64,000 nt of DNA from Eledone cirrhosa (taxonomy: Eukaryota), in NCBI GenBank assembly GCA_964016885.1, contig OZ024743.1:150784001-150848000 (forward strand). The letters are read 5' to 3'. Of the stretch, positions 25,140 to 46,444 are shown piece by piece. Under the pieces are notes generated by a model, which was given only the letters and a program-made list of their open reading frames with translations, did not search any database and had not been told where the DNA came from. Within the stretch, counting starts at the first letter, position 1. Each line of letters opens with the position of its first letter. Position numbers and translations under genes: made by a program.

Positions 25140-27541
25140 CACCATGTAACAAAAAAAAATGTTCTCTGTTCCTGGCTTGTAATCACTTTTTTGTGTTGTT
25201 TAGGTCCCAAATAAATAATTAAAAAAGTGCTATTAAACAGTTAAAAGTTTGGGTTTGTAAAAATTCTAAGCTATTCACTAGAATTATTTGTATGCTGGAT
25301 TTTACGTTGTATGTAAGTTTAATTTGCTTATGTTAAATGATTTTTTTTATTTGCTTATGTTAAATGATTTTATATGTTTCAAGTTAAATTAAAATTATAA
25401 AATAAAGAGTAATTATAAATAAAGAAAATTATAAAAGTGCAATAAAGTATAAAATTGTTAAAAAGTGGATTAAAGAAATTTATTGATACTGGATTTTCGC
25501 ACCCTGAATAAAGGGTAAGTTGTGTTTTAAGCACGAATTTTCATTAGTATGATTAGTGTTCTTTTATATTATTTAAATATGTATTTCCCTTTCCAATATT
25601 TATTTTGTATTGCATATCAAATTTATTTTGTAACCACCCTGACTCTTTCTGTTTTATATGCGGTGAGTATATAAAGAAGAGAGGCAAAAAATTCACCTTG
25701 GAAACATCGGTGAAGGTTTGTACAGAAGTACTTTGGGATGCCAGTTGGGGACCAGGACAAGCCCTGGGGCCCTCACTACTGTTGTGAGCACTGTAAAAAG
25801 ACGCTGGAAGGGTGGCTGCAAGGTGATAAAAATTCCTGAAATTTTCCAACCCACGGGTCTGGTTAGAGCCAACAGACCACGCCACAAACTGCTTTTTTTG
25901 CATGGTGGATGTTAGCAGGCGGCGGAAAGGAAAGAATGCTGCTGATGTAGATTATCCAGATCTTCCATCATCAATTGCTCCAATTCCTCACTGCTCCAAA
26001 TCTCCCGTGCCAGTGCCACCTGCTCCAGATGAAGTCCAAGACAAGTATTCTGATGAAGAGGAGGAGATGGATGCTGAGGACTTGAATTACCTGCCTGAGG
26101 TACCAGAAAAAGTTCCTCACTTCCCAAACCAAAAAGAAGTCAATGATTTGGTCAGGGATATCGGTCTGACCAAGTCCAAATCAGAGCTATTCATCTCCAG
26201 GATGAAGCAGTGGAACTTGGTCAAGGAGGAAGTGCAGGTGACAAGTTAGAGAAGTCGACACAAATCTTTCTCAGGCTTTTACACTCTTAGGGATGGCCTC
26301 TGCTTCTGCCATGACGTGCCTGGACTTTTGACGTTATTGGGGTGCTGTTTGTGCCCAATGAGTGGCAGATATTTATAGACAGCTCCACCACAAGTTTGAA
26401 GGCTGTCCTCCTCCACAATGGAAACAAGTTCCCGACACTGCCCCTAGCTCATTCAGTCTGCCTGAAGGAAGATTACTACAGTGTGAAAGTCCTCTTGGAA
26501 GCTCTGCAATACAACCAGTACAATTAGGAAAACATTAGAGACTTCAAGATGGTGGCTTTCCTGCCTGGACTCCAAGGAGGCTTTATCAAATTCCAATGCT
26601 TCCTCTGCCTTTGGGACAGCAGAGCCACCTCTGACCACTCCAAAAGAAAGAACTGGGAGCAGCGAACAGAATTTGTAGTTGGGACCCGGAACGTCATGTG
26701 GGAGTCACTGGTTGATCCCAGGATTGTGCTCATGCCGCCACTGCACATTAAGTTGGGGTTGATGAAGCAGTTTGTGAAGGCTCTCAACCAAGAATCAGCC
26801 GCTTTTAAGTACCTTCTTGAGTTCTTCCCCAAGTTATCTGAGGCCAGAATCAAAGGTGGGATTTTTGTTGGACCTCAGATAAAGAAGCTGTTTGAGTCTA
26901 TCCAGTTCTCCAATAAGCTCAATAAGATTGAGAAAACAGTATGGAACTGTTTCAAGGCAGTTGTTAAGGGCTTCCTGGGCAACTACAGAGCTGAAAACTA
27001 CCAGTTCAGGATCTGATACAGGCTTTTGGCGCCATGGGATGCAGGATGTCGCTTAAACTCAATATGCTGGACGCTCACCTGGAAAAATTCAAGGACAATA
27101 TGGGCGCCTACTCAGAAGAACAAGGCGAATGATTCCACCAAGATGTGAAAGAGATAGAGCGGAGGTACCAGGGCCACTACAACGAAAAAATGATGGGGGA
27201 CTATATCTGGGGGCTAGTGTGGGAATGCGACCTGGATTACAACTGCAAATCCAGGAAATCCAGTGTATATGTTACTTTATAAGTGTTATTTGTTTTTACT
27301 TGTTTGCTTTTGATAAGCTTGTGTAATAAAATAAATATATACTCTGTTGATGTAATTATATGAACTGATAAATTTTTAAAAAATGTGTTTTTTCTTGAAA
27401 AATATGAAAATTTCGAAATATCAAACTGCTGACCACAAACCCAAACTTCTGATTAAATAATAGTGTTTTTAATAATAATGGGATATGACAAACCAGGAAA
27501 TGATACTTAGAACCAGGGAACAAAAAATATGTTACACGGTG
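25140..27541 (+). mobile_element. Chapaev3-like (CMC superfamily) cut-and-paste DNA transposon, full length but decayed
   Basis: Termini CAC...GTG with imperfect TIRs caccatgtaaca..tgttc..cctgg and ccagggaaca..tgttacacggtg; an internal transposase pseudogene. Confidence 0.8.
25605..27270 (+). pseudogene. Chapaev3-like DDE transposase, broken by frameshifts and stops
   Basis: Motifs CNHPDSFCFICGEY, GDQDKPW, YPDLPSSIAPIPH, VNDLVRDIGLTK, FIDSSTTSLKAVLLHNGN, CFLCLWDSRA, PPLHIKLGLMKQFVKAL, GIFVGPQI and SEEQGE*FHQD, spread across ORFs 25605-27016 and beyond. Confidence 0.85.
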
Positions 27542-27574
<33 letters not shown>

Positions 27575-27586
27575 GGAACCAGTAAG

Positions 27587-27680
27587 ACCCCGACAGCTGA
27601 GCTCAAGCCGTTTCGACGGCTAATTCTGGACTAAATGAAAATTTATCCTGGTATTTAAATAGCCGATCTTCTCAAGGGGT
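27587..27680 (-). ncRNA. Type I hammerhead ribozyme (U3-A8 variant), inverted-arm copy
   Basis: Exact reverse complement of 29968-30061. Confidence 0.85.
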
Positions 27681-28773
27681 AATTCCATATATGGTCAAAG
27701 TGATTGTCAAAAATCAGTAGTAATTCTGTGGTTGCAAATTAGTAGGGGAGATGGTGGCTAAACCTGCCAGTAGGAGAAAGAGGGGAGGGGTGGAGTAGAC
27801 CCAATCAAGCGATGGTAGTGCCAGCTACAGCTGGGCATGAGGTCAAAGAAGATACAGGGGAGGGGGAGGGGGAGGAAGTCGGAACGGTAGGTAGAACAAT
27901 GGGGGGTAGAAATATAGGAAGGAAAAAATACTGAGAGTGAAGAAAGCAAATAAGTGTAAAGAAAAAAGTAAAGTAAATTAAATTCTACGACCTAGGTGTC
28001 AGGCTATTGTTAGGCTAGAATAAAATAAAGAAAGAAAGAAAGAAGTAAAGAAAGAAAGAAATAAAGAAATAACGAAATAAGTAAAAGAACTAGGTGGGAC
28101 GGAATAGGCAAAGACCCTTTTAAGAGGTATAAGTACGTAAATGATACGGTGGCGGGTCAACAAAAGGGGCCAAAATACTAAAGAGACTACCACGAAATAA
28201 ACAATAAAGGTTTCCATCCCGGGCCAGCAACGACCCAGTGCAGCAAAGTGAACTTGTACGAGATAATAATTCTGAGTCCCGAGAAAAATATATACTAATG
28301 CTAACTCTAAAAGATCTAAAACAAGCTACATGAAAGTTCGTACGAAATAAAGGTAGAATACGGAGAAATAAAATCAGAATCCACCCCGCCCAGAAGAAAA
28401 GCGAAGCAAGAAATACTGAAACGAAAAAATAAGGCATAAATGCCACTAAGAAATATAGAGGGCACAGAGAATAGTGGGAGCGGTCGGAAAGAGGGGGCAA
28501 GTATCCGGGGTCTAAGCCAACTGCTATAAAGGGCGGAGTCCGCCAAATCTATCATAGACTAGGGGAGGGGTGGTGGGGGTACTAAGGCTACATGGGGCCA
28601 AAGGGCAGCCTCAGGTGGGCGAGAAAAGACGCCGACAAAGGAGAAGAGCTGGGGTAGAAAGACAAAGGAGAGAGGGGGAAGGAAATAAAGGAAGCGATAA
28701 AAGAATACAAAGAAGATCTTACGTCTTCCTTGGCAAGCAGGGGTTACCCATTGCAAAATCGGCAAGTGGGGTG

Positions 28774-29748
28774 CTATAGCCCTAGTCTACCCCCCCCCCC
28801 CCCCCCCGGGTCATTATGGGGTTTGAGGGCGAGGTAAGTCCTACACAATCTATGTTTACATGCAGTAACCAGTTCATCTTTCTTGTTTAGGAGTTGGTCC
28901 GTCGAAAACAGCATTTGTAAAGTTTCCTCCGAGCATAAATTGCACGGACGGCGTCCTCCCGTGTAAGAATTGGCTCTGGACAGTAATCTCCAAGTGAGAT
29001 CATAGGTGATGTTGTTGTCCTTGAGGTCCCATATGTGGCCCGAAAGTGTAGTGGCGTGACGCCGGGCCGGGTTTCGGAAGGTATGTCTATGTTGGTATAG
29101 CCGGGTCTTGAAGTCACATGCGGTAAGTCCTATATAGGCTTTGTTGGAGGTATCCGTCCTCACGTTGCACTGGTAGATCACATTACGGTCTCTGCATCTA
29201 TTGTCGAGTGGGCAAATAGATCTATCCGGGCAGTTACACCTCCTGGTCGGTTCTCCACTGCTATTTAGGTTATTTCTGCCATCGGGGTTGAGTTTTTTGT
29301 TGTTAGAGGAGACGATGTTTTGTGCGAAGTTTGGTGTAGTGCTGTAAGAGAGTTTAATGGTATTTTTGTTAATTATGTTGTGGTAGCGGTGTTGTAATGG
29401 GAAGTGTTTTTCAATGAGCCTAAAGAATAGTTTCCCGATGGGAGTAGTCACCTCTGCGTTGTGGGGAGGATTGAACCATGTTACATTGCGTGAGCGGCGG
29501 TGTCTCCTGCTGGTTCCGCTAATGGGAGCTGGACAGTAGGATATTTCCTCCCGGAAACCACTCCGCTTGAGGGCCTGGTTGTAATAAGGCGCATGTTCAT
29601 CGAATATCCGCTCATTAGCTGACAAACGGGATATGCGGAGGGAGATGTTTTTGACCAGGTTGTTTGTGATGTTCCTAGGATGGTTTGATCGGCGGTGGAT
29701 GTAGTGCAGATTGTCATTAGGTTTCCTTCCTATATTTCTACCCCCCAT
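28774..29748 (-). CDS. Chimeric ORF: RT thumb and GIY-YIG endonuclease of the inverted arm, with an ATG supplied by the antisense pseudo-LTR
   Basis: ORF 28774-29835 has its first ATG at 29748 (MGGRNIG|RKPNDNLHY...). The rest is identical to the + strand protein. Expression is unknown. Confidence 0.45.
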   Translation of the reverse strand: MGGRNIGRKPNDNLHYIHRRSNHPRNITNNLVKNISLRISRLSANERIFDEHAPYYNQALKRSGFREEISYCPAPISGTSRRHRRSRNVTWFNPPHNAEVTTPIGKLFFRLIEKHFPLQHRYHNIINKNTIKLSYSTTPNFAQNIVSSNNKKLNPDGRNNLNSSGEPTRRCNCPDRSICPLDNRCRDRNVIYQCNVRTDTSNKAYIGLTACDFKTRLYQHRHTFRNPARRHATTLSGHIWDLKDNNITYDLTWRLLSRANSYTGGRRPCNLCSEETLQMLFSTDQLLNKKDELVTACKHRLCRTYLALKPHNDPGGGGGGRLGL

Positions 29749-29967
29749 TGTTCTACCTACCGTTCCGACTTCCTCCCCCTCCCCCTCCCCTGTATCTTCT
29801 TTGACCTCATGCCCAGCTGTAGCTGGCACTACCAACGCTTGATTGGGTCTACTCCACCCCCTCCCCTCTTTCTCCTACTGGCAGGTTTAGCCACCATCTC
29901 CCCTACTAATTTGCAACCACAGAATTACTACTGATTTTTGACAATCACTTTGACCATACATGGAATT

Positions 29968-30061
29968 ACCCCTTGAGAAGATCGGCTATTTAAATACCAG
30001 GATAAATTTTCATTTAGTCCAGAATTAGCCGTCGAAACGGCTTGAGCTCAGCTGTCGGGGT
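29968..30061 (+). ncRNA. Type I hammerhead ribozyme (U3-A8 variant, long stem II), 5' pseudo-LTR
   Basis: Stem I ACCCC/GGGGT; core TTGAGAA (29973-29979); stem II GATCGGCTA/TAGCCGTC with an inner GGATAAAT/ATTTAGTCC hairpin; GAAA (30034-30037); stem III CGGC/GCTG around palindromic TGAGCTCA; GUC cleavage after 30056. Confidence 0.85.
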
Positions 30062-30246
30062 CTTACTGGTTCCTATTACCCACTCTACTACCTCAAGTAT
30101 TGAGTACTTTGGTGCGTTATGGTCCACCTGGTTCCTTACCACATTTCCTTCGTTATCTAGCTCCTACTCCCGTAGTAGAGCACTTTCCGACCCTACCACG
30201 CCCTATCCAGACTTTTCCGCTAAGCTCAATTCATTTCACCTGCACC

Positions 30247-32396
30247 ATGCGAAAACACAACATTGACTTCTCTACCAAGAACATCCCAATCCCACCGAAA
30301 AAACTTTACCTTCGGATGCTCACGCAAAAAATCGATCTATTTGCGAAAAGACTTAGATGGAGAACTTTTTTCTATGACAGATATTGCGACAACCAAGACT
30401 TCTGGACCAAGGAGAGATTCGGATTTATTACCTACAAATCTCCGCCCCTGAACCCCTTGCTCGCACCCTTCGAGAATGACCTCTTCCAACTGGTCAAGAA
30501 CATTAAATTTAAACCCAGACACAACCGATTCCTACAAAAACTCCGTAGCAACTTAACGGAGTATGATAACACAAATGACATCATGGTGCATTCGGATAAA
30601 ACTGGGAACCTATACTTTGTCAACCCTGACAGATACCACACACTGATCAGGAGCAGCCTAAACTCCACCTATAAAAAGGCCAACCACTCTTGCATCGAGG
30701 ACATAAATCGAGATGGACAACAAATCACCTCCAGCCTCGGGGTCGCCGACCGCACGGAACCTCTAGACCCACGGACACCATACTTCACACTGAAGGACCA
30801 TAAATCCGATTTTGACCGTAAACCCTCTATCAGGCTTATTAACCCAACGAAGTCCGACATAGGGAGAATCAGCAAAAAAATCCTAGACCGCGTGATACCA
30901 AAAGTCAAGCAACACACCCGACTTAGCCTATGGATCAACACCCAGGAAGTAATCTCCTGGTTCAGCAATATGGAGGATAAACGAGAAACTAAATTCATAC
31001 AGTTCGACATAGAGAGCTACTATGCTTCAATCACCTTACCGCTACTTACTTCGCCGAAACACTTGTGCCCATCACCGACCAGGAAAGAAAAATCATCCTC
31101 CACGCCAGGAAGACAGTCTTACTCTTTGACGACTCTAAATGGATAAAAAGAGCTCCCGACTCACCCTTCGACGTCAGCATGGGCGCCACGGATTCGGCGG
31201 AGGTCACAGATCTTATAGGATTATTCCTAATAGCCAAACTCACTGATATGTTTCCTGCATTCGGTGGTGGATTGTACCGTGATGATGGGCTCCTTACCCT
31301 TAAAGGGTACAACCCCAGTAGTACAGATCGGGTCCGGAAACAATTAATCAGATTCTTCCGCGACTGGGGATTTAAAATAACCCTACAAACGTCCCTGACC
31401 CGAGTAAACTTCCTGGACGTGACCCTCGACCTCGAAAACGACCTGTACTACCCATACAGGAAACCTAATGACAATCTGCACTATATCCACCGCCGATCAA
31501 ACCATCCTAGGAACATCACAAACAACCTGGTCAAAAACATCTCCCTCCGCATATCCCGTTTGTCAGCTAATGAGCGGATATTCGATGAACATGCGCCTTA
31601 TTACAACCAGGCCCTCAAGCGGAGTGGTTTCCGGGAGGAAATATCCTACTGTCCAGCTCCCATTAGCGGAACCAGCAGGAGACACCGCCGCTCACGCAAT
31701 GTAACATGGTTCAATCCTCCCCACAACGCAGAGGTGACTACTCCCATCGGGAAACTATTCTTTAGGCTCATTGAAAAACACTTCCCATTACAACACCGCT
31801 ACCACAACATAATTAACAAAAATACCATTAAACTCTCTTACAGCACTACACCAAACTTCGCACAAAACATCGTCTCCTCTAACAACAAAAAACTCAACCC
31901 CGATGGCAGAAATAACCTAAATAGCAGTGGAGAACCGACCAGGAGGTGTAACTGCCCGGATAGATCTATTTGCCCACTCGACAATAGATGCAGAGACCGT
32001 AATGTGATCTACCAGTGCAACGTGAGGACGGATACCTCCAACAAAGCCTATATAGGACTTACCGCATGTGACTTCAAGACCCGGCTATACCAACATAGAC
32101 ATACCTTCCGAAACCCGGCCCGGCGTCACGCCACTACACTTTCGGGCCACATATGGGACCTCAAGGACAACAACATCACCTATGATCTCACTTGGAGATT
32201 ACTGTCCAGAGCCAATTCTTACACGGGAGGACGCCGTCCGTGCAATTTATGCTCGGAGGAAACTTTACAAATGCTGTTTTCGACGGACCAACTCCTAAAC
32301 AAGAAAGATGAACTGGTTACTGCATGTAAACATAGATTGTGTAGGACTTACCTCGCCCTCAAACCCCATAATGACCCGGGGGGGGGGGGGGGGTAG
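30247..32396 (+). CDS. PLE reverse transcriptase / GIY-YIG endonuclease polyprotein with one frameshift near 31045-31050
   Basis: ATG at 30247 (MRKHNIDFSTKNIPIP). Motifs HSDKTGN, FTLKDHK, RLINPTKS, QFDIESYY, MGATDSAE, GLYRDDGL, NFLDVTL, WFNPP, CNCPDRSIC (CxCx5C) and VIYQC..AYIGLT..FKTRLYQH. ORF-track pieces 30100-31146 and 31065-32396. DKT and CxCx5C match my recollection of the Naiad clade. Confidence 0.9.
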
Positions 32397-33502
32397 ACTA
32401 GGGCTATAGCACCCCACTTGCCGATTTTGCAATGGGTAACCCCTGCTTGCCAAGGAAGACGTAAGATCTTCTTTGTATTCTTTTATCGCTTCCTTTATTT
32501 CCTTCCCCCTCTCTCCTTTGTCTTTCTACCCCAGCTCTTCTCCTTTGTCGGCGTCTTTTCTCGCCCACCCGAGGCTGCCCTTTGGCCCCATGTAGCCTTA
32601 GTACCCCCACCACCCCTCCCCTAGTCTATGATAGATTTGGCGGACTCCGCCCTTTATAGCAGTTGGCTTAGACCCCGGATACTTGCCCCCTCTTTCCGAC
32701 CGCTCCCACTATTCTCTGTGCCCTCTATATTTCTTAGTGGCATTTATGCCTTATTTTTTCGTTTCAGTATTTCTTGCTTCGCTTTTCTTCTGGGCGGGGT
32801 GGATTCTGATTTTATTTCTCCGTATTCTACCTTTATTTCGTACGAACTTTCATGTAGCTTGTTTTAGATCTTTTAGAGTTAGCATTAGTATATATTTTTC
32901 TCGGGACTCAGAATTATTATCTCGTACAAGTTCACTTTGCTGCACTGGGTTGTTGCTGGCCCGGGATGGAAACCTTTATTGTTTATTTCGTGGTAGTCTC
33001 TTTAGTATTTTGGCCCCTTTTGTTGACCCGCCACCGTATCATTTACGTACTTATACCTCTTAAAAGGGTCTTTGCCTATTCCGTCCCACCTAGTTCTTTT
33101 ACTTATTTCGTTATTTCTTTATTTCTTTATTTCTTTACTTCTTTCTTTCTTTCTTTATTTTATTCTAGCCTAACAATAGCCTGACACCTAGGTCGTAGAA
33201 TTTAATTTACTTTACTTTTTTCTTTACACTTATTTGCTTTCTTCACTCTCAGTATTTTTTCCTTCCTATATTTCTACCCCCCATTGTTCTACCTACCGTT
33301 CTGACTTCCTCCCCCTCCCCCTCCCCTGTATCTTCTTTGACCTCATGCCCAGCTGTAGCTGGCACTACCAACGCTTGATTGGGTCTACTCCACCCCTCCC
33401 CTCTTTCTCCTACTGGCAGGTTTAGCCACCATCTCCCCTACTAATTTGCAACCACAGAATTACTACTGATTTTTGACAATCACTTTGACCATACATGGAA
33501 TT

Positions 33503-33596
33503 ACCCCTTGAGAAGATCGGCTATTTAAATACCAGGATAAATTTTCATTTAGTCCAGAATTAGCCGTCGAAACGGCTTGAGCTCAGCTGTCGGGGT
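33503..33596 (+). ncRNA. Type I hammerhead ribozyme (U3-A8 variant), 3' pseudo-LTR
   Basis: Identical to 29968-30061; predicted cleavage after 33591. Confidence 0.85.
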
Positions 33597-33687
33597 CTTA
33601 CTGGTTCCTATTACCCACTCTACTACCTCAAGTATTGAGTACTTTGGTGCGTTATGGTCCACCTGGTTCCTTACCACATTTCCTTCG

Positions 33688-33759
<72 letters not shown>

Positions 33760-33762
<3 letters not shown>

Positions 33763-35977
33763 AAGAATTAAGAGTGAGTAACATGGTTGGCTGTACAATA
33801 AGGGCTTTATTTAAAGTACTGACAATTGTTTCGTTGATCAGGTGAGTCTAGAGTTCGCTAATCGTCTGCGGTTGCGTCATTCGATCTCCAATACATTATT
33901 TACCTCTGGTCAACACATCAGAGTACGTAGATATGAAAGTAATTAACTCGAGGCAAGACTTATATAGAAAAATAGCGTATAATCAAAACAATAACATCAA
34001 TAATAAAACATGTATGGTAAATAGGTAGAGAGGTTACAGATGTAAAAAGTAAAAAGTAAAATATAAGATAGGGTACATTAAAAAATAAGAAAATGAGAAA
34101 ATGGAAAATATAAAGAAAGAAATAAGTGAGAGCGTGTAAGTACATAGTAGTAGTTTTTGAGTAAGTGTTCTTATAAGGATTCGTTGGTGGGTTTAGCGCT
34201 AACATGAGAAACCAGATTCGAGGTGTACATAGATACGTGTAGAGGGACCGATAAAAGAAATTAGAGATTAATTGGTAGATACATGTATGATATTTATGGG
34301 CTAGGGATGACGGGACATTTGATAAACGCTTGTTGTAAATGTTTTGCTGATTGTTCTATCTTAATGGGGTTGATGCTGTTTCAGGGAGAGAGGGTGAAAG
34401 TGATGTTCAGAGATTTATGATCCAGTGACCAGTTATCCGTTTGATAGTTAATAGCAGTGCGATGGTATGTGTTCTATATGTTAAAATCTATGTGATTCAG
34501 TACTAATTTTGGGATTGCTGGTTCAAATCATGGTGGTTTGAAGTTTGTGAATCTAGTAGCTATTTTATGCCTACAGAAAATTAATCTTTCTATTTTTCTG
34601 TTAAGCAGTATCTCATCGTACCTTAAAATATGTAGTAGTTCTAAATTACAAAGCCCGCAGTGGGACATACCGTTGCTGTAGGCTTTTGCTACCGATAATT
34701 TTGACCAGCTAATCTTATATTCTAGGTTTTTGTCCTTAAACTGCTAGATTTTATTGGTGAGCGTCATAGAGTTCTCCAGTGCACGGTTCTTCATGGAGTA
34801 TCTGTGGACGTACCATCTTTTCTTGAACTCCCCAGCTGTGGAACCTATGTAGTGCCAAGTAGAGTTGCCTGAATTTACAGTACACAGGTATACCATGCTC
34901 GAATCCAGGCATCTATTCCGTAGTGGGCACTTATCCGGTAGGTGGCAATTACAATTTGAGGTTTTATTTTGTGCAGGCTCATCGTTGCGGTTTTGTAAGT
35001 TGTTGTGGGTGGGTTGTGATTTAGGCCTATTAATGTTTTGTTGTAATGTTCTCTGATGTGTTTGTGGTTGTGATGTTGTTATGTGCTTGTGTTTTGTATT
35101 TGGTGTTATGGTGCGTGTGGGTACGTTAATTTCTTTAGAGATAATTTTGTGGTTGATCTTACGTATGTGCGATTCTATGTTGGCTGCAGTAGAGTAGGAA
35201 AGTTTTATAGTTTTTCTATTGAAGATTTTATGGTATTTGTGTAGTGTAGGGAAGTGCTTAGCTATTAGTTTAAAGAATGTAGAAGGTAGTTTAGTTTTTA
35301 TAGAGGAGTTGAATATTGGATTGAACCATAGGTACTTTCTATCTCTGGATCTTCTATACTTTTGGGGGGTCCTTATATTAGTGTTCTGTTCGGTTATTTT
35401 TGGTGCTTGTTGTCTAATTCTATGCTTAGTCCTATGCTTGTTATTTCTATATGAGCGGGTAGTGTTGTCGTTAGGTTTGTTGTTCTTGTCTTTATCTAAT
35501 ATTTATTCCAGCTTCTCCTTATGTCCAGACTTATGTAAAGCTATGTTATAATAGTTTGCGTGTTCTTTAAAAATTTCTAGGTTCGAAGATAGGCGGGATA
35601 TTATGAGGGATATACTATGTGCTATGGAGTTAATTATGGATCGGGGATGGTTTGAGTTATAACTAATGTAGGCTAGATTTTCGTTATTCCTATGGACGGG
35701 CTCTATTAATCCTGTGTTTAGGTTGAGAGTTACATCTAAGAAATTTGCTTTTTTAGAGTTAAGTTTGAAAGTGATACCTAGGCCTAGTTTTTTGAAGAAT
35801 ACTCTAATGTTTTTTCGTAATCTTTCCATGTTCTGATTATTTAAGTTTTTTGACTAGAAGGAGTGTATCGTCTCTGTAAATTCCTCCTTGGAGTTTATTG
35901 AATTCCTTATGTAAGTTATATATATATTCCCACCAAGTCCATTACCTGCGCTGAGTCGTTAAATCCCATTGTGATAT

Positions 35978-35980
<3 letters not shown>
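33760..35980 (-). mobile_element. Second, older 5'-truncated Naiad-like PLE of a different family
   Basis: Minus frames give GGIYRDD (about 35866-35888), ANFLDVTLNL..SNHPRSI (ORF 35503-35829), YLWFNP, CNCHLPDKCPLRNRC and MVYLC..HYIGST..FKKRWYVH, with TAA/TAG stops. It is bounded by (TA)n on both sides. Confidence 0.88.
33816..33926 (-). ncRNA. Type I hammerhead ribozyme at the PLE 3' end, with A9 mutated
   Basis: Minus strand reads GTACT-CTGATGT-GTTGACCAG...CTGATCAAC-GAAA-CAATTG-TC-AGTAC, with a palindromic stem III. Confidence 0.75.
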
Positions 35981-36052
<72 letters not shown>

Positions 36053-36057
<5 letters not shown>

Positions 36058-36230
36058 TCATATCACACTGAAAACGGAAGTTCTCATCCGACCACCAAAG
36101 TTAAGCAATGTCGAGCCTAGTTAGTACTTGGATGGGTGATTGCTTGGGAAACCTAGGTGCTCTAAGCATTTCCTCATCATCTACCCCTGCTAGCGTGGAA
36201 AAATGGACGTAAAATGGTAATGATGATGAT
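36053..36230 (+). mobile_element. 5S rRNA-derived retrocopy fused to an RTE 3' tail (SINE3-like)
   Basis: 36053-36171 resembles 5S rRNA (ttctcatccgaccaccaaagttaagc..ttagtacttggatgggtga..gcttgggaa..ggtgct). It is followed directly by cccctgctagcgtggaaaaatggacgtaaaa(tga)n. Confidence 0.85.
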
Positions 36231-36366
36231 AATATATTTTTATTTAAAATATGTTTATTAAAACAAGACTGCGCTCAAATTTGAATGTTGTATTATGAAT
36301 TTTTAATATTACTATAATAGTTCTTTATGTTTAGTTTGGAATATTAGCACCCTCATATCCATGAGT

Positions 36367-36408
36367 TTATTAGTGTTTCGAAATTGTTCAACCCCATCAT
36401 CAAAATAA
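36367..36408 (-). ncRNA. Degenerate minimal hammerhead-like motif
   Basis: TTATT-TTGATGA-T-GGGGTTG..CAATTTC-GAAA-CACT-AATAA; same layout as 56320-56359. C3 and U16.1 are altered. Confidence 0.4.
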
Positions 36409-36529
36409 GAATGGTAGTATTTGTGGTGTATTATTCATGTTTTTCAATGGTTGCACAGTATCATGGGATAACTAGTACATATATATATATATACATATAT
36501 AATATATAAATATAATATATATATATAGT

Positions 36530-39500
36530 CTAGTATCGATTTCGATCCCTCCTGGTCTGGTGTAGCTGTCTTGTATTGCCTTTGTGTTTGCAGGTTGGTA
36601 TTGTAGGGCTTGAAATTTTCCAGCATTAAACTGCATGTTGTTGTCCTCAGCCCATTTGTATATGGCATCCAGATCTTGTTGTAAAAGGACAGCATCAGCC
36701 GGGTTTTTGATTGCCTATGCTACTTTTGTGTCATCAGCATAGCTAGTGAGGGATGTTGTATGTACAACAGAGGGCATGTCTGAAAGAACCACCAAAAGCG
36801 GTAGTGGTCCCAAGACACCCCTCTTGTTATTGATGTTTCCTTTGAGAGGGCCCCATTGACTGCAACTGTCTGGCTTCTATCTTTTAAAAAATCATGCAGC
36901 CACTCACCTACTTTTTCAGTTATGCCAAGTCGGTGTAGTTTGTAACATATCATTCCATGGTCAGACTTGTCAAAGGCTTTTGCAAAGTCAAGATATATCA
37001 CATCCACATGTGAGCTGTCTAGCAGCTGTTTTAGTACCCAGTCATAGTGTTGTAGCAGCTGTGTAAGGCAGCTTCTTCCTAGGCAAAAGCCATGCTGCTA
37101 GTTAGGTGGTCATTTTCCTCAAGGAACATGATCAGTTTCTTTCTGATGATTTGCTCCATGACCTTACTGATATGTGATGTCAGGGAGACTGGCTTATAGT
37201 TTTTGGCCTCCGCTCTGCTTCCTCCTTTATGGATAGGGCATACTGTGCCTTCTTTTAGCTCTCTGGATAGTTTACTGCTAGCCAAAGAACTTCTGAAGAG
37301 GATCTTCAGTGGTCTTGTTAAGGCACGCTTACATATTTTTAGGAGGACTGCTGGGAATCCATCAGGTCCAGCAGCTAAGTTCGTTCTAATTTCGTCTATG
37401 GCAGATATCACATCTTCCTCCATTATGTCTCTGTGGTTGATGATCGCCATTTTAGAATGGAGTATTGTGGCATCAAAGAAATCCTCTAGCTTTGTTATTT
37501 CCATGTGCCTCAGTGGAGGATCTTGGGGATCCTCGGTTAATGAACCATCTTTATGGAATAGTGGTCCAATCTTGCAGTGTACAAAGGCAGTCTGTTTTGC
37601 AAATTTAAAGAAGGCCTTAGGATTTGTTTTAATATTTTCTATGGTCTGGCTTCTCTCTCTCTGCCCTCTCCTTCTCATTGGAAAGTTTGTGTGCAGTTTT
37701 AATTTGAAGTAGTGCCTGTTTCACATAGGATTCCTTCTTCTTCTTCTGTTGTACATTTAACTGGTTTGAGAGCTTAGTTCTTCGTCTCATAAGGATTTTC
37801 CTGTCTCTGGGAATAAGATTTTTGTGTCCGTTGGCCTTTCTCCAGGACAAACTTATGGCATATGGTTTATATTGTTGTCATGAAATGCTGAGGTGATGTT
37901 GTCGCTCCAGTTTTGCTTCCGGATCCCGTTATTGATCTTTTTCCAGTTAGCCTTGTGAATGTTTAGGCTGGATAAATTGCTTCTTAATGGTTGTGTCTCT
38001 GCTGACTCTCTTGGGCCACATATCATTAGTTCTACTAAGTTATGATCCAAGAAAATCATTGGTGTCACCTTTACATTGTTGATGAGCACAGCATTGTTTG
38101 TAAAGCAGAGATCCAGGACATTCTTGCCTCTAGTTGGAAGGAGTACAGCTTGTTCCATGTAGAGCCTGTGTGTGAGGGCCAGCCGGGACTCCGTCTGATG
38201 TCTGTTCGAGTGATGCCATGGAGGAGGTGGCCCTCATGTCATTTCACTTTTGGTAGGTTTAAACTCTCCCAGCAGCAGGATGTTGTGACCCTGGTCCAGT
38301 TTGTCAAGGACTTCTTCCATCCTTCTGAGGCTATCCTTGAACTTTCTTTCACGGGTGGCTGATATGTGACACATATTACCATTTTCAGTTGCTTCATATG
38401 TACTATCAGTGTGTCACAGACTGAGTTTGAATGAGTCAACAGTACAATCAGTGTGACATCTTCATGGGTGTGCAGGGCAACCCCACCATGAGTTCTCTCC
38501 TTCCTGTCTGAATGAAATAGAGTATATTTTGGTATATGTATTTCTGCATCTGCTATACTGCTTGTCAGGTGCGTTTCGGTTAGTGTCATGCATATTGCTT
38601 GATTGTTTATGGCTAAGTCTCTCAGGTAGGGAATTTTACACAGCAGCACTGGTGTGACATTCAGGGTGTCAGCAATGGCTGTTGGTGTGGCACCTGCCCT
38701 GGTGTTAGTGGCAGCCACCCTGGGTCCCTTGATTGTGGTGGTCTTGAGTGCTAGTGTGAGTGACCCTGGCTCTGAAAATGATGTAGCCAGGTCAATTGTC
38801 TCCACCATTTCTAAAAAATTATTTTGCTCTGCTGCCACCCTCTGTATTTCATCTGCACATGTGTGCCTTCTCCTCTTTATTGGGGTGGCGCGTATGATAT
38901 CAGCATACTTCTGGGGCAGCTTGCATCGGTTCTGGTTTTGCCTGGAGCATTTTGGGTGAGAATGTTGGGCGTAGCCTGGGGTCAGCGAACCTAGCCTGTC
39001 CCTGTTTCTCCATGCCAGCAGGTCCCGTTCCTAAAGAAATTGCATGTTACCTGGGTTTTCTTTCTCCCAGTGTCTCGGCGCCTACTGTTCTTCCTTTGGA
39101 CAGTTGTCCACTGGTCCCTTTCTCTTGGATGTTTTCCTTCAGGTGGTGATTTCTCATCTCACCTTTACCGCTTACCTGTTGTTCACGCAGCCTGCCTTCT
39201 TTGACTGTGGCGGTGGGTATCTCATTTGTGGTGTTTTCAGGTCGTTCTGTGTCTCCATAGACCCTTTATGGACAGTGTTTTTATTTTCTACCATTTCTTT
39301 TTCTCTGTCTTCTTCCTCCTTGAGGACTCGGCTTAGCATGGCCATCTGTGGCGCTATGAAGACATAGGCCCTCTCAATTTCTCTCTTTTTCCTCTCTATT
39401 TGCCCCAAAGTCATCAGAAAACCATGGCTCTTCAAGGGCTCTGCAATTATTTTGGTTAGCCGCGACCCATCAGCCAGGCTCCATCCTTTGATCACAACCT

Positions 39501-39565
39501 CTAGTTCTACCTTTGTCCAATTTTGTTGCCTTCTATTTGTATTTCCTCCTTGCATGCAGTCCATT
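36530..39565 (-). mobile_element. Decayed CR1-group LINE (ORF1 remnant, APE endonuclease and RT), 3' end missing
   Basis: LTETHL..SDRKERTHGGVAL (38239-38838), PTRGKNVLDLCFTN..DHNLV (37853-38158), AAGPDGFP..NYKPVSLTS (37079-37678), DVIYLDFAKAFDK (36720-37007) and YADDT at about 36728-36742. Confidence 0.9.
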
Positions 39566-40207
39566 TCACTCTAGAGTGGGGTGAGAGAGAAAGAGAGTGG
39601 GGAGGGTATGGCAAAGGTTAAAATGAGTGAGAGAAAGAGAGAGCGGTATGGGTAGGGAGGAGGTTAAAGTGAGAGAGAAAGAGAGAGAAAGAGAGAGGGA
39701 GAGGGAGAAAAATCCCATGAGAAATTGAAGGAGCAATTGAGAGGGAAAGAGAGAGAGAGATTTTGAGATCCAGGGAGGAAAGAGAGAGAGGGATAGAGAC
39801 AGCGTGAAAGAAAACCAGCATCAGAGTGGGAGGGTTATGGTTAGTGACTTCAACAAACAAATGTTAATTATAATTATTAGTATGCTTCTTTAAATATTAT
39901 TCAAGACGACTAAAAAAAACACGTGTTCATGAGAAAAATAAATATAAATAAGCAAAAACAAAATGAAACAAATAAAAATATAAAAAATGAGACAAAATAA
40001 AATAAAATAGAATCACGCGGATGCAAATAAATAGATAAAATATGATTATGATTTAACGAGCACTACTGTGAGTCTCAATCATTAGGCATATATATATATA
40101 CTGTACGTCTGTATACATATATGTATGTACATATACATACTTAACCCATGCTAACGTGGAAGAACGGACGTAAAACGGTGATGATGATGATATTTATATA
40201 TATATAC

Positions 40208-40242
<35 letters not shown>

Positions 40243-40252
40243 CATATATATA

Positions 40253-41411
40253 TCATCATCATCATCATCGTTTAACGTCCATCTTCCATGCTAGCATGTG
40301 TTTGGACGGGACTTTTCCCACTTGAGGCAAGATTGGTTGTCTTGCTCGTATAGGACTGTCTTGCAGGTTTTCTACAGCTGGATGCACTTCCTAACACCAA
40401 CCACATTTAGGGTGTGGACTGGGAGGTTTTTACCGTGTTACCTACACGGCCACATTACAGCGTGGACTGTGTGTTTTTTGTTGTGACACCTACACAACCT
40501 CATTTATTTAGGACTGGATGTTGTGGTACCAACATAACTTTACATCGAAAGGGGTGGTGTGGATGGGGTGGGGTAGTGGGACGGGGGTGTATTTTGGTTA
40601 AGAGGTGCCTAATGACTGTAGGTTTAGCTTTGCACTTAGGCCAGGCGGGTCTTCTGTATTACTGTGTAGCGCCAAAGATCTCGGTCCAGTGGCATTGTCT
40701 TGGAGAGGTGTAAGTGTGTGAGGTCGGAATTTATCAAGTCATCCCAGGTTTTTCTGTGTCTGCTACCGTCTATTTTTATCGGCCTGCACTTTTTTATACA
40801 GCTGTTGTCTTTCATGCGCATCACGTGATGATACCAACATAGCCTTCTCTCGAGTAAACAGCATCTGATCCCTCTTATTCCTAATTTCTCACTTAGTTCA
40901 TTTATGCTTTGCCGTTCACGTATATTACTATTACACATCCAACAGAGCATTTAAGCTTCGTTCCTCTCCAGTCTGCAATAACCTCTGTACACAATGCCCA
41001 AGTCTCACTGCCATGTAACAATGATGTTCGTATGCAGGCATCATACAGTCTGCCTTTCAATTTTTAGAGAGAAACCTTTAGCGGCCAATAGTGGTATAAG
41101 CTCTCTGAACTTTTTCCATCCCGTTCTGACTCTAGCTACTGTACTTACAGAGCACCCTCTACCACTGCTGATTTTGTCACCCAGGTAACGGAAGGTGTCC
41201 ACTATTTCTATAGAACCATCTGTGCAATGGAATGAGCTAGTATTCTGTGGGCACTTGCTACTACTTAGTGCACTTTAGCACTGGACACATATAAAATCTA
41301 TATTCTTAGTTAGCTTACCTGTGATCCCACTACATCTTTTATGCACTCATACTTTGCATTTGGGACATAAAATGGAGTTTCTGCCTACTCCTTTCCTACA
41401 CACTGAGCATG

Positions 41412-41416
<5 letters not shown>
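40253..41416 (-). mobile_element. RTE LINE 3' part, same family as 47143-48740
   Basis: ORF 40636-40950 closely matches the C-terminus of ORF 47311-48234; (TCA)n tail; (TA)n flanks. Confidence 0.9.
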
Positions 41417-41496
<80 letters not shown>

Positions 41497-41679
41497 ATCA
41501 AATCACACCATACCACCATAAGGTGCTTGGTACACCAATATCTGTGTAACCATGTGCCACAGACTATTTTACTCAATGATGACTGAAATAAATTTCAGAA
41601 ACAGAATATACTCATACAAATTTAGTAGTATGCTTGCAATAATTGGACATAATGATTAATGTTATCTGTAAGAAACATA

Positions 41680-41729
<50 letters not shown>

Positions 41730-41766
41730 TTTTTTATTAATGTGTGTGTGTGTATGTATATATATA

Positions 41767-41807
<41 letters not shown>

Positions 41808-41918
41808 GCAAAGTTTTATTTAAATTGTTGGGTTACAACGAGTAAATATTTATAACTGATATAAAAGCACTCAACAAGTATTTGGAGTATATTTACGATA
41901 TTAAATAAATGGAAACTA

Positions 41919-42025
41919 TATTTATAAAACCATATTTATTTCATTATATATATTTCAGGGATATCATATTAAAAATATGGTATGCCTTCTTCAGACAAAA
42001 TACAATATAAACAGTCTTATAAATA
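41919..42025 (-). ncRNA. Minimal type I hammerhead-like motif, left arm of the palindrome
   Basis: Reverse complement of 44506-44612. Confidence 0.65.
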
Positions 42026-42059
42026 AGATTTGACATACGGTAGATATAGAGAGATAGAT

Positions 42060-42138
<79 letters not shown>

Positions 42139-44220
42139 TAGAGAGAGATAGATATAGATAGAGATAGAGAGAAAGAAAATAGGTAGTTGGGCACCAGTTG
42201 AATGACGTATCAATGATATATTTATTTATTTATTTAGTTCTAGTATTAAGGTAGAGAGAGATATATGTGGTTAGGAGAGAAAACAGTCGTTACATAGAGA
42301 GAAAAGAAAAATATCCAGATATAAACGAGGCAGATTTAAAACATTATGTTTCATCAATGTAAAAATATCAATTCGTATGAATTAGGTATTATAATGTAAA
42401 TATCAGTATTCATGAATGAGACACGTATCAATAACGTGTGAAAAATAATGATCATATGTCTAGTTTAAAATTCCTAGGTTTATATCAGAGTTGAGGTAAA
42501 AACTGAGATAAAAAACTGAGATAAAAAACTGAGATAAAAAAATTCAAAAAAAATTGAAATACATAAGTATATATGCACTTTCATGAAAAAAAAAAGAAAA
42601 AAAAAGAAAATAGAAGGTTATCCCAGATTCGATACTATAGACTTCCATGTGAATTTACGTGATCAACTCTGCAAATTCCTATTTCACATGAAAACATTCT
42701 CATTGTGCTATAAAAATTCTAGTATACATATATGTGTACATACACACAAATATATATAGAATCTACATTAATTTTAACAATACTATTCTTGTCTTTACTC
42801 TACATGATTATCGTTCAAGCATAAATAGACAACAGATATCAATATATCAATAAAAATATCAAAAAATTAAAAAATATTAAAAATAAAACACAGTATGCCC
42901 CGCAAATCAACCACAGAGATCAACCCTTCAAAATTAATTGACAATATATTGCCAAGTTCATTATAAGCATCAGAATCAAAAGCAAACAAAACCAAAATTA
43001 TTTACCAAATCCTGTCTAGCAGAAATCATTCCAAAAGTTTAGGATACCCATTTGATCTACAGATGGTCTTATATTTATTATAGAAGTTTATCTAGTGTAA
43101 AATTTATTCGATATATTTGGAGCATCAGCTTTTAGGGTAGTTTAATTATTCATGAAGAATGTTTAAAAAAAAGAAATCGAAAGATTTATCGGCGAGTTTC
43201 ATAAATAATTATAAATCAAAGTAAATATACTACATTTTAAATTTATATTTATATTTAAAACTTCTATAATAAATATAAGACTATCTGTAGATCAAATGGG
43301 TATCCTAAACTTTTGGAATGATTTCTGCTAGACAGGATTTGGTAAATAATTTTGGTTTTGTTTGCTTTTGATTCTGATGCTTATAATGAACTTGGCAATA
43401 TATTGTCAATTAATTTTGAAGGGTTGATCTCTGTGGTTGATTTGCGGGGCATACTGTGTTTTATTTTTAATATTTTTTAATTTTTTGATATTTTTATTGA
43501 TATATTGATATCTGTTGTCTATTTATGCTTGAACGATAATCATGTAGAGCAAAGACAAGAATAGTATTGTTAAAATTAATGTAGATTCTATATATATTTG
43601 TGTGTATGTACACATATATGTATACTAGAATTTTTATAGCACAATGAGAATGTTTTCATGTGAAATAGGAATTTGCAGAGTTGATCACGTAAATTCACAT
43701 GGAAGTCTATAGTATCGAATCTGGGATAACCTTCTATTTTCTTTTTTTTTCTTTTTCTTTTTTCATGAAAGTGCATATATACTTATGTATTTCAATTTTT
43801 TTTGAATTTTTTTATCTCAGTTTTTTATCTCAGTTTTTTTATTTCAGTTTTTACCTCAACTCTGATATAAACCTAGGAATTTTAAACTAGACATATGATC
43901 ATTATTTTTCACACATTATTGATACGTGTCTCATTCATGAATACTGATATTTACATTATAATACCTAATTCATACGAATTGATATTTTTACATTGATGAA
44001 ACATAATGTTTTAAATCTGCCTCGTTTATATCTGGATATTTTTCTTTTCTCTCTATGTAACGGCTGTTTTCTCTCCTAACCACATATATCTCTCTCTACC
44101 TTAATACTAGAACTAAATAAATAAATAAATAAATAAATATATCATTGATACGTCATTCAACTGGTGCCCAACTACCTATTTTCTTTCTCTCTATCTCTAT
44201 CTATATCTATCTCTCTCTAT

Positions 44221-44292
<72 letters not shown>

Positions 44293-44505
44293 CTGTGTTT
44301 TTTCTCTCTCTATCTATCTCTCTCTCTCTGTTTCTTTACATGAATTTCTTCTCTCTATATCTATCTATCTCTATTTAGTTGCATGCATTTCTTCTTTTTC
44401 TTCGCTTTTTTTCTTTCTTTCTTTTTATAACTGTCCCTAACATTTTTCATTACCAAATCAACTTTTTAAATGGAAGTTGAAGTTGTAAGGTATGTCAAAT
44501 CTATC

Positions 44506-44612
44506 TATTTATAAGACTGTTTATATTGTATTTTGTCTGAAGAAGGCATACCATATTTTTAATATGATATCCCTGAAATATATATAATGAAATAAATATG
44601 GTTTTATAAATA
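44506..44612 (+). ncRNA. Minimal type I hammerhead-like motif, right arm of the palindrome
   Basis: CTGAAGA (44537-44543); stem II AGGCATACCATATT/AATATGATATCCCT; GAAA (44575-44578); TATA-TA; distal stem I TATTTATAAGACTGT/ATGGTTTTATAAATA. The proximal stem I register is imperfect. Confidence 0.65.
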
Positions 44613-44832
44613 TAGTTTCCATTTATTTAATATCGTATATATATATGTGTGTGTATATATATGTATATATACATGTATATATATATATATATATTAGAAT
44701 TGTAGCTCTGAAATAGCAATATATATATGGATGTAAATATAATGTATTTTGCAATACACTTTATGCTTAATTAAAAGCATTTTGAAGACCGTAAGCTATT
44801 GTTTTAAAGTAGTGACAAATTCACTCACTTCG

Positions 44833-44924
44833 ATCTCAGCAAACAGGAGGAGATAAGCCGACATGACATGTTTCGCTTTTGTTGAAGCTTATCAAGGCCA
44901 ACTACCCCGCCCGTCTGCTGAGAT
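44833..44924 (-). ncRNA. Type I hammerhead ribozyme (U3-A8), retrozyme copy 1
   Basis: Reverse complement of 45103-45194. Confidence 0.88.
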
Positions 44925-45102
44925 TAATGATGTTATATTCTTATAGAAATCTAGTAAATAATCAGGAGCTGATTATGCAGAGCGGTTGTTGGTCAGGCAG
45001 AAATTAAAAATTAGAATTGTAGCTCTGAAATAGCAATATATATATGGATGTAAATATAATGTATTTTGCAATACACTTTATGCTTAATTAAAAGCATCAT
45101 TA

Positions 45103-45194
45103 ATCTCAGCAGACGGGCGGGGTAGTTGGCCTTGATAAGCTTCAACAAAAGCGAAACATGTCATGTCGGCTTATCTCCTCCTGTTTGCTGAGAT
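45103..45194 (+). ncRNA. Type I hammerhead ribozyme (U3-A8), retrozyme copy 2
   Basis: GCC-TTGATAA(45132-45138)-GCTT caacaa AAGC-GAAA(45153-45156)-CATGTCATG-TC-GGC. Long stem I ATCTCAGCAGACGGG/CCTGTTTGCTGAGAT. GUC cleavage after 45167. Confidence 0.88.
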
Positions 45195-45419
45195 CGAAGT
45201 GAGTGAATTTGTCACTACTTTAAAACAATAGCTTACGGTCTTCAAAATGCTTTTAATTAAGCATAAAGTGTATTGCAAAATACATTATATTTACATCCAT
45301 ATATATATTGCTATTTCAGAGCTACAATTCTAATTTTTAATTTCTGCCTGACCAACAACCGCTCTGCATAATCAGCTCCTGATTATTTACTAGATTTCTA
45401 TAAGAATATAACATCATTA

Positions 45420-45511
45420 ATCTCAGCAGACGGGCGGGGTAGTTGGCCTTGATAAGCTTCAACAAAAGCGAAACATGTCATGTCGGCTTATCTCCTCCTG
45501 TTTGCTGAGAT
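45420..45511 (+). ncRNA. Type I hammerhead ribozyme (U3-A8), retrozyme copy 3
   Basis: Identical to 45103-45194; cleavage after 45484. Confidence 0.88.
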
Positions 45512-45613
45512 CGAAGTGAGTGAATTTGTCACTACTTTAAAACAATAGCTTACGGTCTTCAAAATGCTTTTAATTAAGCATAAAGTGTATTGCAAAATAC
45601 ATTATATTTACAT

Positions 45614-45676
<63 letters not shown>

Positions 45677-46149
45677 AATGTGTGTTTGTAATATTATAAT
45701 GCTCAGTATTTATACTTTGAGCTTGTTAATTGCAGGGTATCAATATGAGTTAATAATTCTATATTTTATTTATTTGTATTTTGGCTCCCTATCTAGGTGA
45801 GCTTATAAGATGAGTGTAATTAGGCTATTATTTCTAGCTTAACCACTCACACCACGTATAGCTTTCAACCCACAAGGTACATTATTTACTTCCGTGAGTT
45901 CCTTGTTAGATGTGTTTTGTTTCATTTAATCTAATCTCATTTAATCTAATTTCATTTAATGCCTGTTACAAACACAATTTTCAGGGCGAAACAGATTAAA
46001 ATTTTTAGTCTGTCCGAGAGATGAAATCGTTATTGATACGGTATGTATAGGAAATCTTGTATCTTACTGTATGCTTCAGTTTAAATATATAAAACATTTG
46101 TGGTATAATCTACCCTTGTAATTTTAGATGCAGAATTTACTGTGTTTAT

Positions 46150-46274
46150 TTCTACGTATATTAATATATATATGTATATAAATGTGTATATATGTATATA
46201 TATATATGTGTATATATATATATGTACATATGTGTATACATATGTATACATATGTATATATATGTGTATATATG

Positions 46275-46309
<35 letters not shown>

Positions 46310-46365
46310 GTATATACATATAATAAATGTCTATATATTATAAATATATACATATAATATACGTC

Positions 46366-46442
<77 letters not shown>

Positions 46443-46444
46443 TA

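Follow-up and report, generated by a model that had tools for sequence, protein, structure and literature searches.

A hammerhead-bearing 317-bp repeat of Eledone cirrhosa carries the insertion footprint of Penelope-like elements and is probably mobilised by them in trans

The subject of this study is a non-coding tandem repeat with a 317-bp unit, found in a 64,000-nucleotide stretch of the Eledone cirrhosa genome (GCA_964016885.1, contig OZ024743.1, positions 150,784,001 to 150,848,000, forward strand; hereafter the window), together with a Penelope-like element (PLE) at 27573-33691 of the same window, here called Hydra-A. A preliminary description of this DNA had proposed a helper and satellite system, in which the reverse transcriptase (RT)-endonuclease of this PLE copies ribozyme-cut or circular RNAs of the repeat. 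From comparison of sequences we conclude, with a probability of roughly 0.85, that the 317-bp repeat is a retrozyme without long terminal repeats (LTRs), mobilised in trans by the RT-endonuclease of a TA-targeting PLE. The fuller reading, with a probably monomeric RNA circle as the template copied in trans, also appears likely. The proposal thus holds as far as a PLE enzyme acting in trans is concerned (the evidence being a tail rule, inversions and fixation of variants), but not in its pairing of the repeat with the neighbouring PLE; it is doubtful that Hydra-A is the helper, the other candidates being families C, D, E and F or an unsampled PLE. Families were sampled across the 3.0-Gb genome twice, first from the best hits and, to reduce bias, a second time following genome coordinates; for the 317-bp repeat this gave 59 loci (numbered L), 39 of them best hits, the window included, and 20 in coordinate order. 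The insertion in the window has the following parts.

44693-45097, minus strand: left arm of the 317-bp retrozyme, 1.28 units, with the long end (monomer position 240)
45095-45625, plus strand: right arm, 1.68 units, with the short end (monomer position ~204, running into TA)
45095-45097, no strand: strand-switch overlap of 3 nt, CAT
45103-45194, plus strand: type I hammerhead fold with a long outer closing stem and a U3-A8 core (z -7.3)
45310-45322, plus strand: small GCT..GAGC hairpin between the two end points, a candidate RT-recognition element

The repeat has the properties of a retrozyme: tandem units in the 150-450-bp range, a GC content below 50% (0.35), no coding capacity (the longest stop-free stretch is 46 codons) and a hammerhead in each unit. 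Units of both arms in the window are 100% identical. The ribozyme core lies at 45132-45138, with a predicted cut after 45167, and further copies stand one unit (+317) away at 45449 and on the minus strand at 44889-44895. A descriptor scan gave 39 loci with 174 hammerhead copies of the repeat; the ribozyme has 537 exact matches in the genome, and units are 98-100% identical among the best hits. Three copies match the Rfam family HH9 at 31.1 bits (E 8e-4), under its gathering score of 52. No tRNA gene was found in 27000-46500, and by its architecture the repeat lacks LTRs, a polypurine tract and a primer-binding site, the last having had no separate search. The repeat carries neither a GAT or A tail nor a tRNA-derived part, which speaks against spreading by a long interspersed nuclear element (LINE).

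Two related repeats help to define what is conserved. The sister 310-bp repeat has a C3-G8 core and 4,211 matches to its exact ribozyme pattern; an older subfamily of the 317-bp repeat (327 matches, 30 loci) has C3-G8 in all 14 readable cores. The subfamilies are ~75% alike over positions 143-287, which hold both end points, and it is this end-point region, not the ribozyme, that makes up the conserved part. The long outer stem of the ribozyme is retained, the z values being -7.3, -5.6 and -4.7 for three subfamilies and -1.4 for a decayed copy. Its maintenance through heavy divergence suggests selection on the RNA of the repeat. The 310-bp repeat (L071:504-2756, L199-L208) reaches 14 units per arm and, at an arm divergence of 0.12%, is the youngest family measured. 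One 317-bp locus, L228 (G000:C2:207685000-207694900), contains over 25 units, spaced alternately by ~304 and ~316, with variants that only part of the units share; it has the appearance of a retrozyme insertion growing into a satellite.

The insertion footprint is the evidence that carries our conclusion. Two-arm inversions make up 48 of the 59 loci, always with the minus arm before the plus arm and both 3' ends outward, and of the 104 outer ends that could be read 101 are in TA-type repeat, which covers 1.9% of window bases. The ends fall into two classes, at monomer position ~204 (short) and at 240-247 (long); the interval of ~36 nt between them is the tail. A short end was paired with a long one in 27 of the 29 best-hit inversions and in all 13 of the coordinate-ordered ones, i.e., in 40 of 42 scorable cases (P 2e-10 against a coin). 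Dropped ahead of this count were L033 and L222 (N gap), L228 (end not reached), and L037, L053 and L066 (one end outside TA). The same one-sided tail was found in 9/9 inversions of the 310-bp family and, among PLEs, in 18/20 of Hydra-A and 20/20 of the family Hydra-D. Exceptions L040 and L047 (317-bp repeat) and L240 (one of the two in Hydra-A) have inverted flanks of 53-88 nt, which fits with later duplications. In the accessible text of the papers cited here, two RT start sites delimit the tail in vitro, which is called unique to PLEs (PMC11167929), and the tail is often present at one end only (PMC8557442). Since the 317-bp repeat shows the same one-sided footprint as the Hydra PLEs, it is likely copied by a PLE enzyme, and the strict rule of one short and one long end argues for paired priming by one complex.

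The tail rule is the strongest evidence; the TA target and the junction microhomology are weaker. Among filler-free junctions, an overlap of at least 2 nt was seen in 14 of 25 for the 317-bp repeat (chance 0.18) and in 7 of 8 for Hydra-A (chance 0.15). The likenesses between the two elements listed in the preliminary description were confirmed: both contain a fold with a type I U3-A8 core, both sit in (TA)n, both join an inverted partial arm to a tandem or redundant one (PLE arms 99.6% identical; 1.28 and 1.68 repeat units), and both strand-switch overlaps (TTTCCT at 29722-29727, CAT at 45095-45097) are real. The lack of obvious common sequence was likewise confirmed, as the monomer has no significant nucleotide similarity to the PLE 3' region (best E 2.2). 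In the genomic insertions compared, the 317-bp repeat and Hydra-A agree in their (TA)n flanks, in their inversions with a tail on one arm and in an enrichment of junction overlaps. The flanks are of low complexity, and one possible target-site duplication was seen, of 39 nt (L200, 310-bp family).

As to the template, variants tend to be uniform within a locus. Of 39 loci of the 317-bp repeat, 21 have variant 8A>G in all units and 18 in none; in addition, both arms are fixed for private variants at L045, L051 and L060 (317-bp) and at L203, L205 and L050 (310-bp). Variants of the 310-bp family at 12 loci were fixed in 3 cases, singletons in 25 and partial in none. In a 5.5-unit array of Hydra-A, 9 private variants occur in every unit that covers them, with 0.30% divergence within and 1.67% between loci. 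Such fixation means that the arrays pass a single-monomer bottleneck, for which a circle read by rolling-circle reverse transcription would be a simple and, in our opinion, fairly probable explanation.

A feature of the tails may indicate what the enzyme recognises. An RCT..GAGY hairpin lies directly 3' of the short end in 9 of 11 non-repeat tails (shuffle frequency 0.01-0.06 each), five of the 11 tails being linked to a reading frame (A, C, D, E, F). The 317-bp and 310-bp repeats contain a miniature GCT..GAGC form of it, kept across subfamilies; this type is that of D, E and F, whereas Hydra-A has ACT..GAGT. As a lead, the hairpin is a candidate RNA element read by the PLE enzyme.

Several observations weigh against this account. 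The hairpin motif was defined after the tails were seen, has a stem of only 3-4 bp in the repeat and is missing from 2 of the 11 tails. The ~36-nt tail of the repeat is shorter than the Hydra tails measured (70-102 nt). Filler takes the place of overlap at 10 of 35 junctions of the 317-bp repeat and at 10 of 18 of Hydra-A, and junction microhomology is not PLE-specific; neither is adjacency to TA, as LINE tails in the window adjoin TA in 5 of 11 cases. As for the circle, 35 variants are partly shared within a locus (11 in best-hit and 24 in coordinate-ordered loci), 10 of the 35 spanning both arms; 19 of the 24 belong to the long array L228. Some templates may thus be multimers, or arrays may recombine later. 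Moreover, linear multimers from homogeneous source arrays would likewise give uniform daughters, and hammerhead cleavage is dispensable for PLE insertion in vitro (PMC11167929).

We propose the following course of events. The array transcript would be cut to monomers by the hammerhead and then circularised. A PLE protein, perhaps a dimer, would bind near the small hairpin and nick both strands of a (TA)n tract, and two complementary DNAs (cDNAs) would be primed, one just before the hairpin and the other ~36 nt further 3'; priming at two sites would make both arms read antisense from their outer ends. Each cDNA would run round the circle for less than one to more than 14 units, and the two, anchored on opposite strands, would then be linked head to head, whether through a short overlap, bluntly or with filler in between. 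The PLE itself seems to follow the same route, with a 3.5-kb unit as its template. A broader version of this scheme is offered tentatively, as a little short of even odds: Hydra enzymes in general would perform paired target-primed rolling-circle reverse transcription on circles, from two sites flanking the RCT..GAGY hairpin, and ribozyme circles free of homology would parasitise them through the mini-hairpin.

Identity of the neighbouring PLE. The parts of Hydra-A are listed below, with the basis of each assignment where it was recorded.

27573-29727, minus strand: inverted arm, 5'-truncated; its outer end is the short (tail-less) one, in (TA)n (end point same in other copies)
29722-29727, no strand: strand-switch overlap of 6 nt, TTTCCT (junction comparison)
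29722-33691, plus strand: main arm, 1.12 units of a 3536-bp period; its outer end is the long (tailed) one
30247-32396, plus strand: frame with RT and then GIY-YIG, with Hydra motifs, frameshifted in this copy (two frames)
33503-33596, plus strand: type I hammerhead fold with U3-A8 core, long stem II and 6-bp stem III (descriptor scan, fold)
33612-33691, plus strand: tail of 80 nt, on one arm only, holding the ACT..GAGT hairpin motif

The inverted arm (27572-29727) is 99.6% identical to 31458-33611, and the direct pseudo-LTRs (pLTRs), placed at 29722-30157 and 33258-33691, are 99.3% identical when aligned over 29722-30159 and 33258-33694. Hammerhead cores lie at 29973, at 33508 and, on the minus strand, at 27675; the predicted cut is after 33591 and further copies of the fold are at 29968-30061 (plus) and 27587-27680 (minus). 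The fold energy is no better than that of shuffles (z -0.08) and the Rfam hammerhead families gave no match to this PLE, while the ribozyme has 2,169 exact matches in the genome. The preliminary description had called the element Naiad-type and autonomous. However, GIY-YIG follows the RT motifs rather than standing N-terminal to RT, the motif is DKT instead of DKA and a hammerhead fold is present; the element at 27573-33691 is by these characters a PLE of the Hydra clade, an assignment that rests on motifs rather than on an RT tree. Nor is the window copy autonomous, as it is frameshifted, with a 13-nt gap after 31050 relative to the natural intact copy L069; intact frames of 784-788 codons occur in 4 of 20 fetched loci (L069, L076, L079, L081).

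Both Hydra-A and the second family described below, Hydra-C, have a single open reading frame (RT first, GIY-YIG C-terminal), a hammerhead near the 3' end and a (TA)n target. Their motifs are RWR, DKT, CNCPDRSIC (the CxCX5C linker), CNLC (CxxC) and CKH (CxH), with a single Cys between VIY and YIG; a CCHH motif was not seen in these frames, and a Pfam search of the PLE frames gave no significant match. These properties agree with the accessible description of the Hydra clade (Craig et al. 2021, PMC8557442): C-terminal GIY-YIG, an RWK-like motif, DKT, CxCX5C and no CCHH, and also a hammerhead, (TA)n, a one-ended tail and partial tandem copies accompanied by a truncated copy in inverted orientation. 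That clade is described as generally <3 kb with tails of 30-40 nt, whereas here the tails are 70-102 nt, the core is U3-A8 and the 3.5-kb unit (3536-bp period, including a 1.3-kb 3' region) exceeds this descriptive limit. Hydra-1_Obim of the same paper, which the PLEs of this genome resemble, has a C3-G8 core and no pLTR listed, unlike Hydra-A with U3-A8. The final 200 bases of Hydra-A (window 33464-33680) are covered far more deeply than the element body in organism C; this contig depth, a rough measure, hints at a great number of very short insertions consisting of ribozyme and tail.

The palindrome at 41894-44637, which the preliminary description had offered as another non-coding passenger, was rejected as such. 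Its window parts, and those of a degraded element between the two PLEs, are the following.

41808-43260, minus strand: left arm of Hydra-C, with an 86-nt tail at 41808-41893
43258-44637, plus strand: right arm of Hydra-C, with the short end; this copy is the non-coding 3' region only
44529-44594, plus strand: minimal type I hammerhead fold of Hydra-C, with a canonical C3-G8 core at 44537 and a palindromic stem III
33760-35980, minus strand: degraded fragment of the Hydra-like family B, sharing a TA tract with Hydra-A (frames, cluster, fold; extent by eye)

Other copies continue into Hydra frames of 748-750 codons (L097, L100), 40% identical to those of Hydra-A; by this comparison the palindrome is a truncated inverted copy of a second coding Hydra family, with 2,372 candidates in the genome. 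The inverted layout and TA target ascribed to it hold, but position 41894 lies outside TA; with the 86-nt tail its left end is ~41808, in TA. A second hammerhead core is at 41994 on the minus strand. Hydra-C and the left arm of the 317-bp repeat adjoin one common TA tract. At L053/L299:4092-8297 and L038:1344-2760 the repeat is joined without TA to Hydra-C-like arms; these were not counted as co-insertions, because the ends are long/long and short/short, as a deletion between neighbours would leave them. Family B has a hammerhead-like fold of C3-G8 type with position 9 changed (core 33915-33921). A protein search gave 81,349 candidates and added two further young families whose frames are intact, Hydra-D and Hydra-E. 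The TA target and insertion architecture are common to at least four young Hydra families in which intact frames exist, and many possible helpers are available. The 3' regions of Hydra-D and Hydra-E (L139-L168) include microsatellite-like sequence as an integral part of the element, a possible seed of new TA targets.

Which PLE, then, serves the repeat? The idea that Hydra-A does, with the shared U3-A8 core as the mark of the partnership, we regard as doubtful. It draws on a descriptor census of 31 hammerhead clusters near TA, biased by the choice of loci, in which U3-A8 occurs in 3 multi-locus clusters plus one doubtful singleton; Hydra-A is the only one of these tied to a frame, which keeps the pairing alive, and its frames are intact in four loci. 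(An Rfam Hammerhead_1 genome search, which is not a census, showed one C3-G8 family only among 30 loci viewed.) The ages of the two families overlap as well, with identical arms in 3 of 13 scorable coordinate-ordered inversions and pooled arm divergences of 0.70% for Hydra-A and 1.72% for the repeat. Organisms B and C carry the repeat (share 0.81 and 0.65) together with Hydra-A-like contigs (21 and 19,432), and in organism C the PLE has the same two end points; this co-occurrence agrees with the proposal, though weakly. Left out of this comparison were run X1, in which the repeat is complete but no contig matched Hydra-A (an absence that may be spurious), and organism D, with a share of 0.30 and no contig matching the repeat. 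However, U3-A8 does not work as a signature of partners. The sister repeats that share the initiation region carry C3-G8, which means that U3-A8 either originated within this lineage or disappeared from it repeatedly; it is already known as covariant in Schistosoma PLEs; and the two ribozymes are alike in the core only. Furthermore, a third U3-A8 family, non-tandem and with a minimal hammerhead, has 11,539 exact matches (L036, L063, L300-L332). It forms TA-targeted short inversions that follow the two-end rule in 6 of 7 scorable pairs, had no PLE frame upstream in 33 loci (within ~0.9 kb) and no hairpin motif in its tail, and is possibly a second kind of PLE passenger. Age gave no pointer to the helper: arm divergence in the coordinate-ordered samples was 1.11% for Hydra-D (only 7 of 20 loci scorable), 0.70% for Hydra-A, 1.72% for the 317-bp and 0.12% for the 310-bp repeat, with which Hydra-A remains compatible, and an earlier ranking of Hydra-D as youngest came from a first sample biased towards intact frames and was not repeated. 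Tail-to-tail Hydra-A neighbours of the repeat across TA (L043, L055, L071) gave no signal either, as C, D and E occur as neighbours too. The existence of at least four young Hydra families, the lability of U3-A8 and a hairpin nearer to that of D, E and F than to that of Hydra-A thus leave the pairing with the neighbour unsupported.

The same PLE enzyme might instead read a linear multimeric read-through transcript, the ribozyme being incidental to insertion. This is unlikely in our judgement, although it is the most serious of the alternatives: partly shared variants occur, some across both arms (L044, L058, L212, L225, L227), the ends lie ~131 and 167 nt downstream of the predicted cut rather than at it, and uncut RNA is the main substrate in vitro according to the accessible text of PMC11167929. 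Fixed private variants in all units and subfamily variants never mixed in short arrays would, however, need repeated single-monomer bottlenecks; the absence of partial variants in the 310-bp family and the retention of the ribozyme's outer stem speak the same way. Descent of the repeat as the pLTR remnant of an unsampled PLE, moving in cis or recently derived, seems quite improbable. Among 57 retrozyme families of Xenopus, 24 have a match to a known element, which is a PLE in 21 cases (bioRxiv 10.64898/2026.07.22.740005), and we compared the ends of five families (A, C, D, E, F) out of the 81,349 protein-level candidates; but among 98 loci from three subfamilies there was no Hydra frame with a repeat unit for its 3' region, and beyond TA runs there is no similarity to the ends of these five. 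An ancient descent from a pLTR is compatible with mobilisation in trans. Least probable of all is spreading by a LINE, e.g. the GAT-tailed one with RT and PHD domains, or by repair and satellite amplification at the DNA level, with TA tracts collecting everything. LINE tails next to TA, the generic nature of microhomology and the local array growth at L228 would suit such a process. The repeat, however, has no GAT or A tail and no tRNA part, and amplification at the DNA level would not be expected to give fixed pairs of end points or a strict polarity. In both arms the 3' start region is present, which is not known from twin priming by L1. The tail rule largely refutes this explanation.

Some neighbouring features deserve mention in their own right. 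The GAT-tailed LINE lies at 40140-41416 (minus) and 47107-48717 (plus), in copies ~90% alike that flank the cluster in opposite orientation, both adjoining TA tracts. A 5S rRNA-like sequence (36050-36168; 75 bits, above the gathering score) starts at a TA tract and is likely a retrocopy or a 5S-derived element. Directly left of the PLE, at 25553-27280, are transposase-like frames with a Cys-rich N-terminal part, presumably of the DNA transposon class, and at 24410-24886 (minus) a further Hydra-like family is represented by a short GIY-YIG fragment that a TA tract cuts. Elsewhere in the genome we saw a tandem hammerhead family of ~463 bp with C3-G8 and ends in TA, unrelated in sequence (L044, minus, cores 463 apart; L103).

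The elements themselves belong to known kinds. Earlier papers already proposed retrozymes, their probable mobilisation by PLEs and circular templates (PMC7229834, PMC7761336, PMC4209133). Non-LTR retrozymes (Cervera and de la Pena 2020, PMC7229834; review PMC7761336) resemble the 317-bp repeat in their tandem 150-450-bp units, type I hammerheads, GC content below 50% and lack of coding capacity; the accessible text of PMC7229834 shows expression, but includes no cephalopod and reports no inverted two-arm insertions, one-sided tail or (TA)n target, while our repeat has a U3-A8 core and is known from sequence alone. The preliminary description held that dependence on PLEs is usually only proposed. 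This is outdated, as Li, Clavereau and Pollet (2026, bioRxiv 10.64898/2026.07.22.740005) already describe animal retrozymes as non-autonomous PLE derivatives, on the basis of co-occurrence in 35 vertebrate genomes and pLTR homology in Xenopus; no mollusc and no tail appear in the accessible part of that preprint. It also explains arrays by local amplification, whereas 317-bp arrays look made at insertion, and in our repeat, unlike the Xenopus retrozymes, no homology to a pLTR was detected. Passengers of PLEs that are non-coding and inserted head to tail are known from Chlamys, e.g. MRC1 (PMC8557442); these differ in having 3' sequence common with their helpers and being mostly without hammerheads. 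With A, C, D, E and F, the 317-bp repeat shares no 3'-end or pLTR homology, only the post hoc hairpin motif; it does have the inverted arm, one-sided tail and microsatellite target of a PLE insertion. In the Anolis element Poseidon (Frangieh et al. 2024, PMC11167929) two internal RT starts bound the tail in vitro, as here, both strands are cut in an AT-rich target and a dimer is predicted. Its starts lie in the start of the reading frame and are not target-homologous, whereas here the ends have AT-like overlap with the target, and the accessible text deals with a cis template only, with no circle and no passenger. We found no prior report of the inverted, one-tailed footprint or of the fixation pattern in retrozymes, subscription journals being outside the search; what is new is thus the PLE footprint on a retrozyme without pLTR homology.

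The RT of animal retrozymes, the circle as its template and the origin of tandem and inverted PLE insertions are open questions in the literature. Very young families, start sites mapped to a few bases and natural intact helpers make them testable in vitro with a predicted product. If the broader scheme is true, viroid-sized ribozyme circles would enter the genome in a single step, in the form of inverted multimers, and the passengers would form a guild, comprising the 317-bp and 310-bp repeats, the older subfamily, the 463-bp tandem family and the 11,539-copy U3-A8 family.

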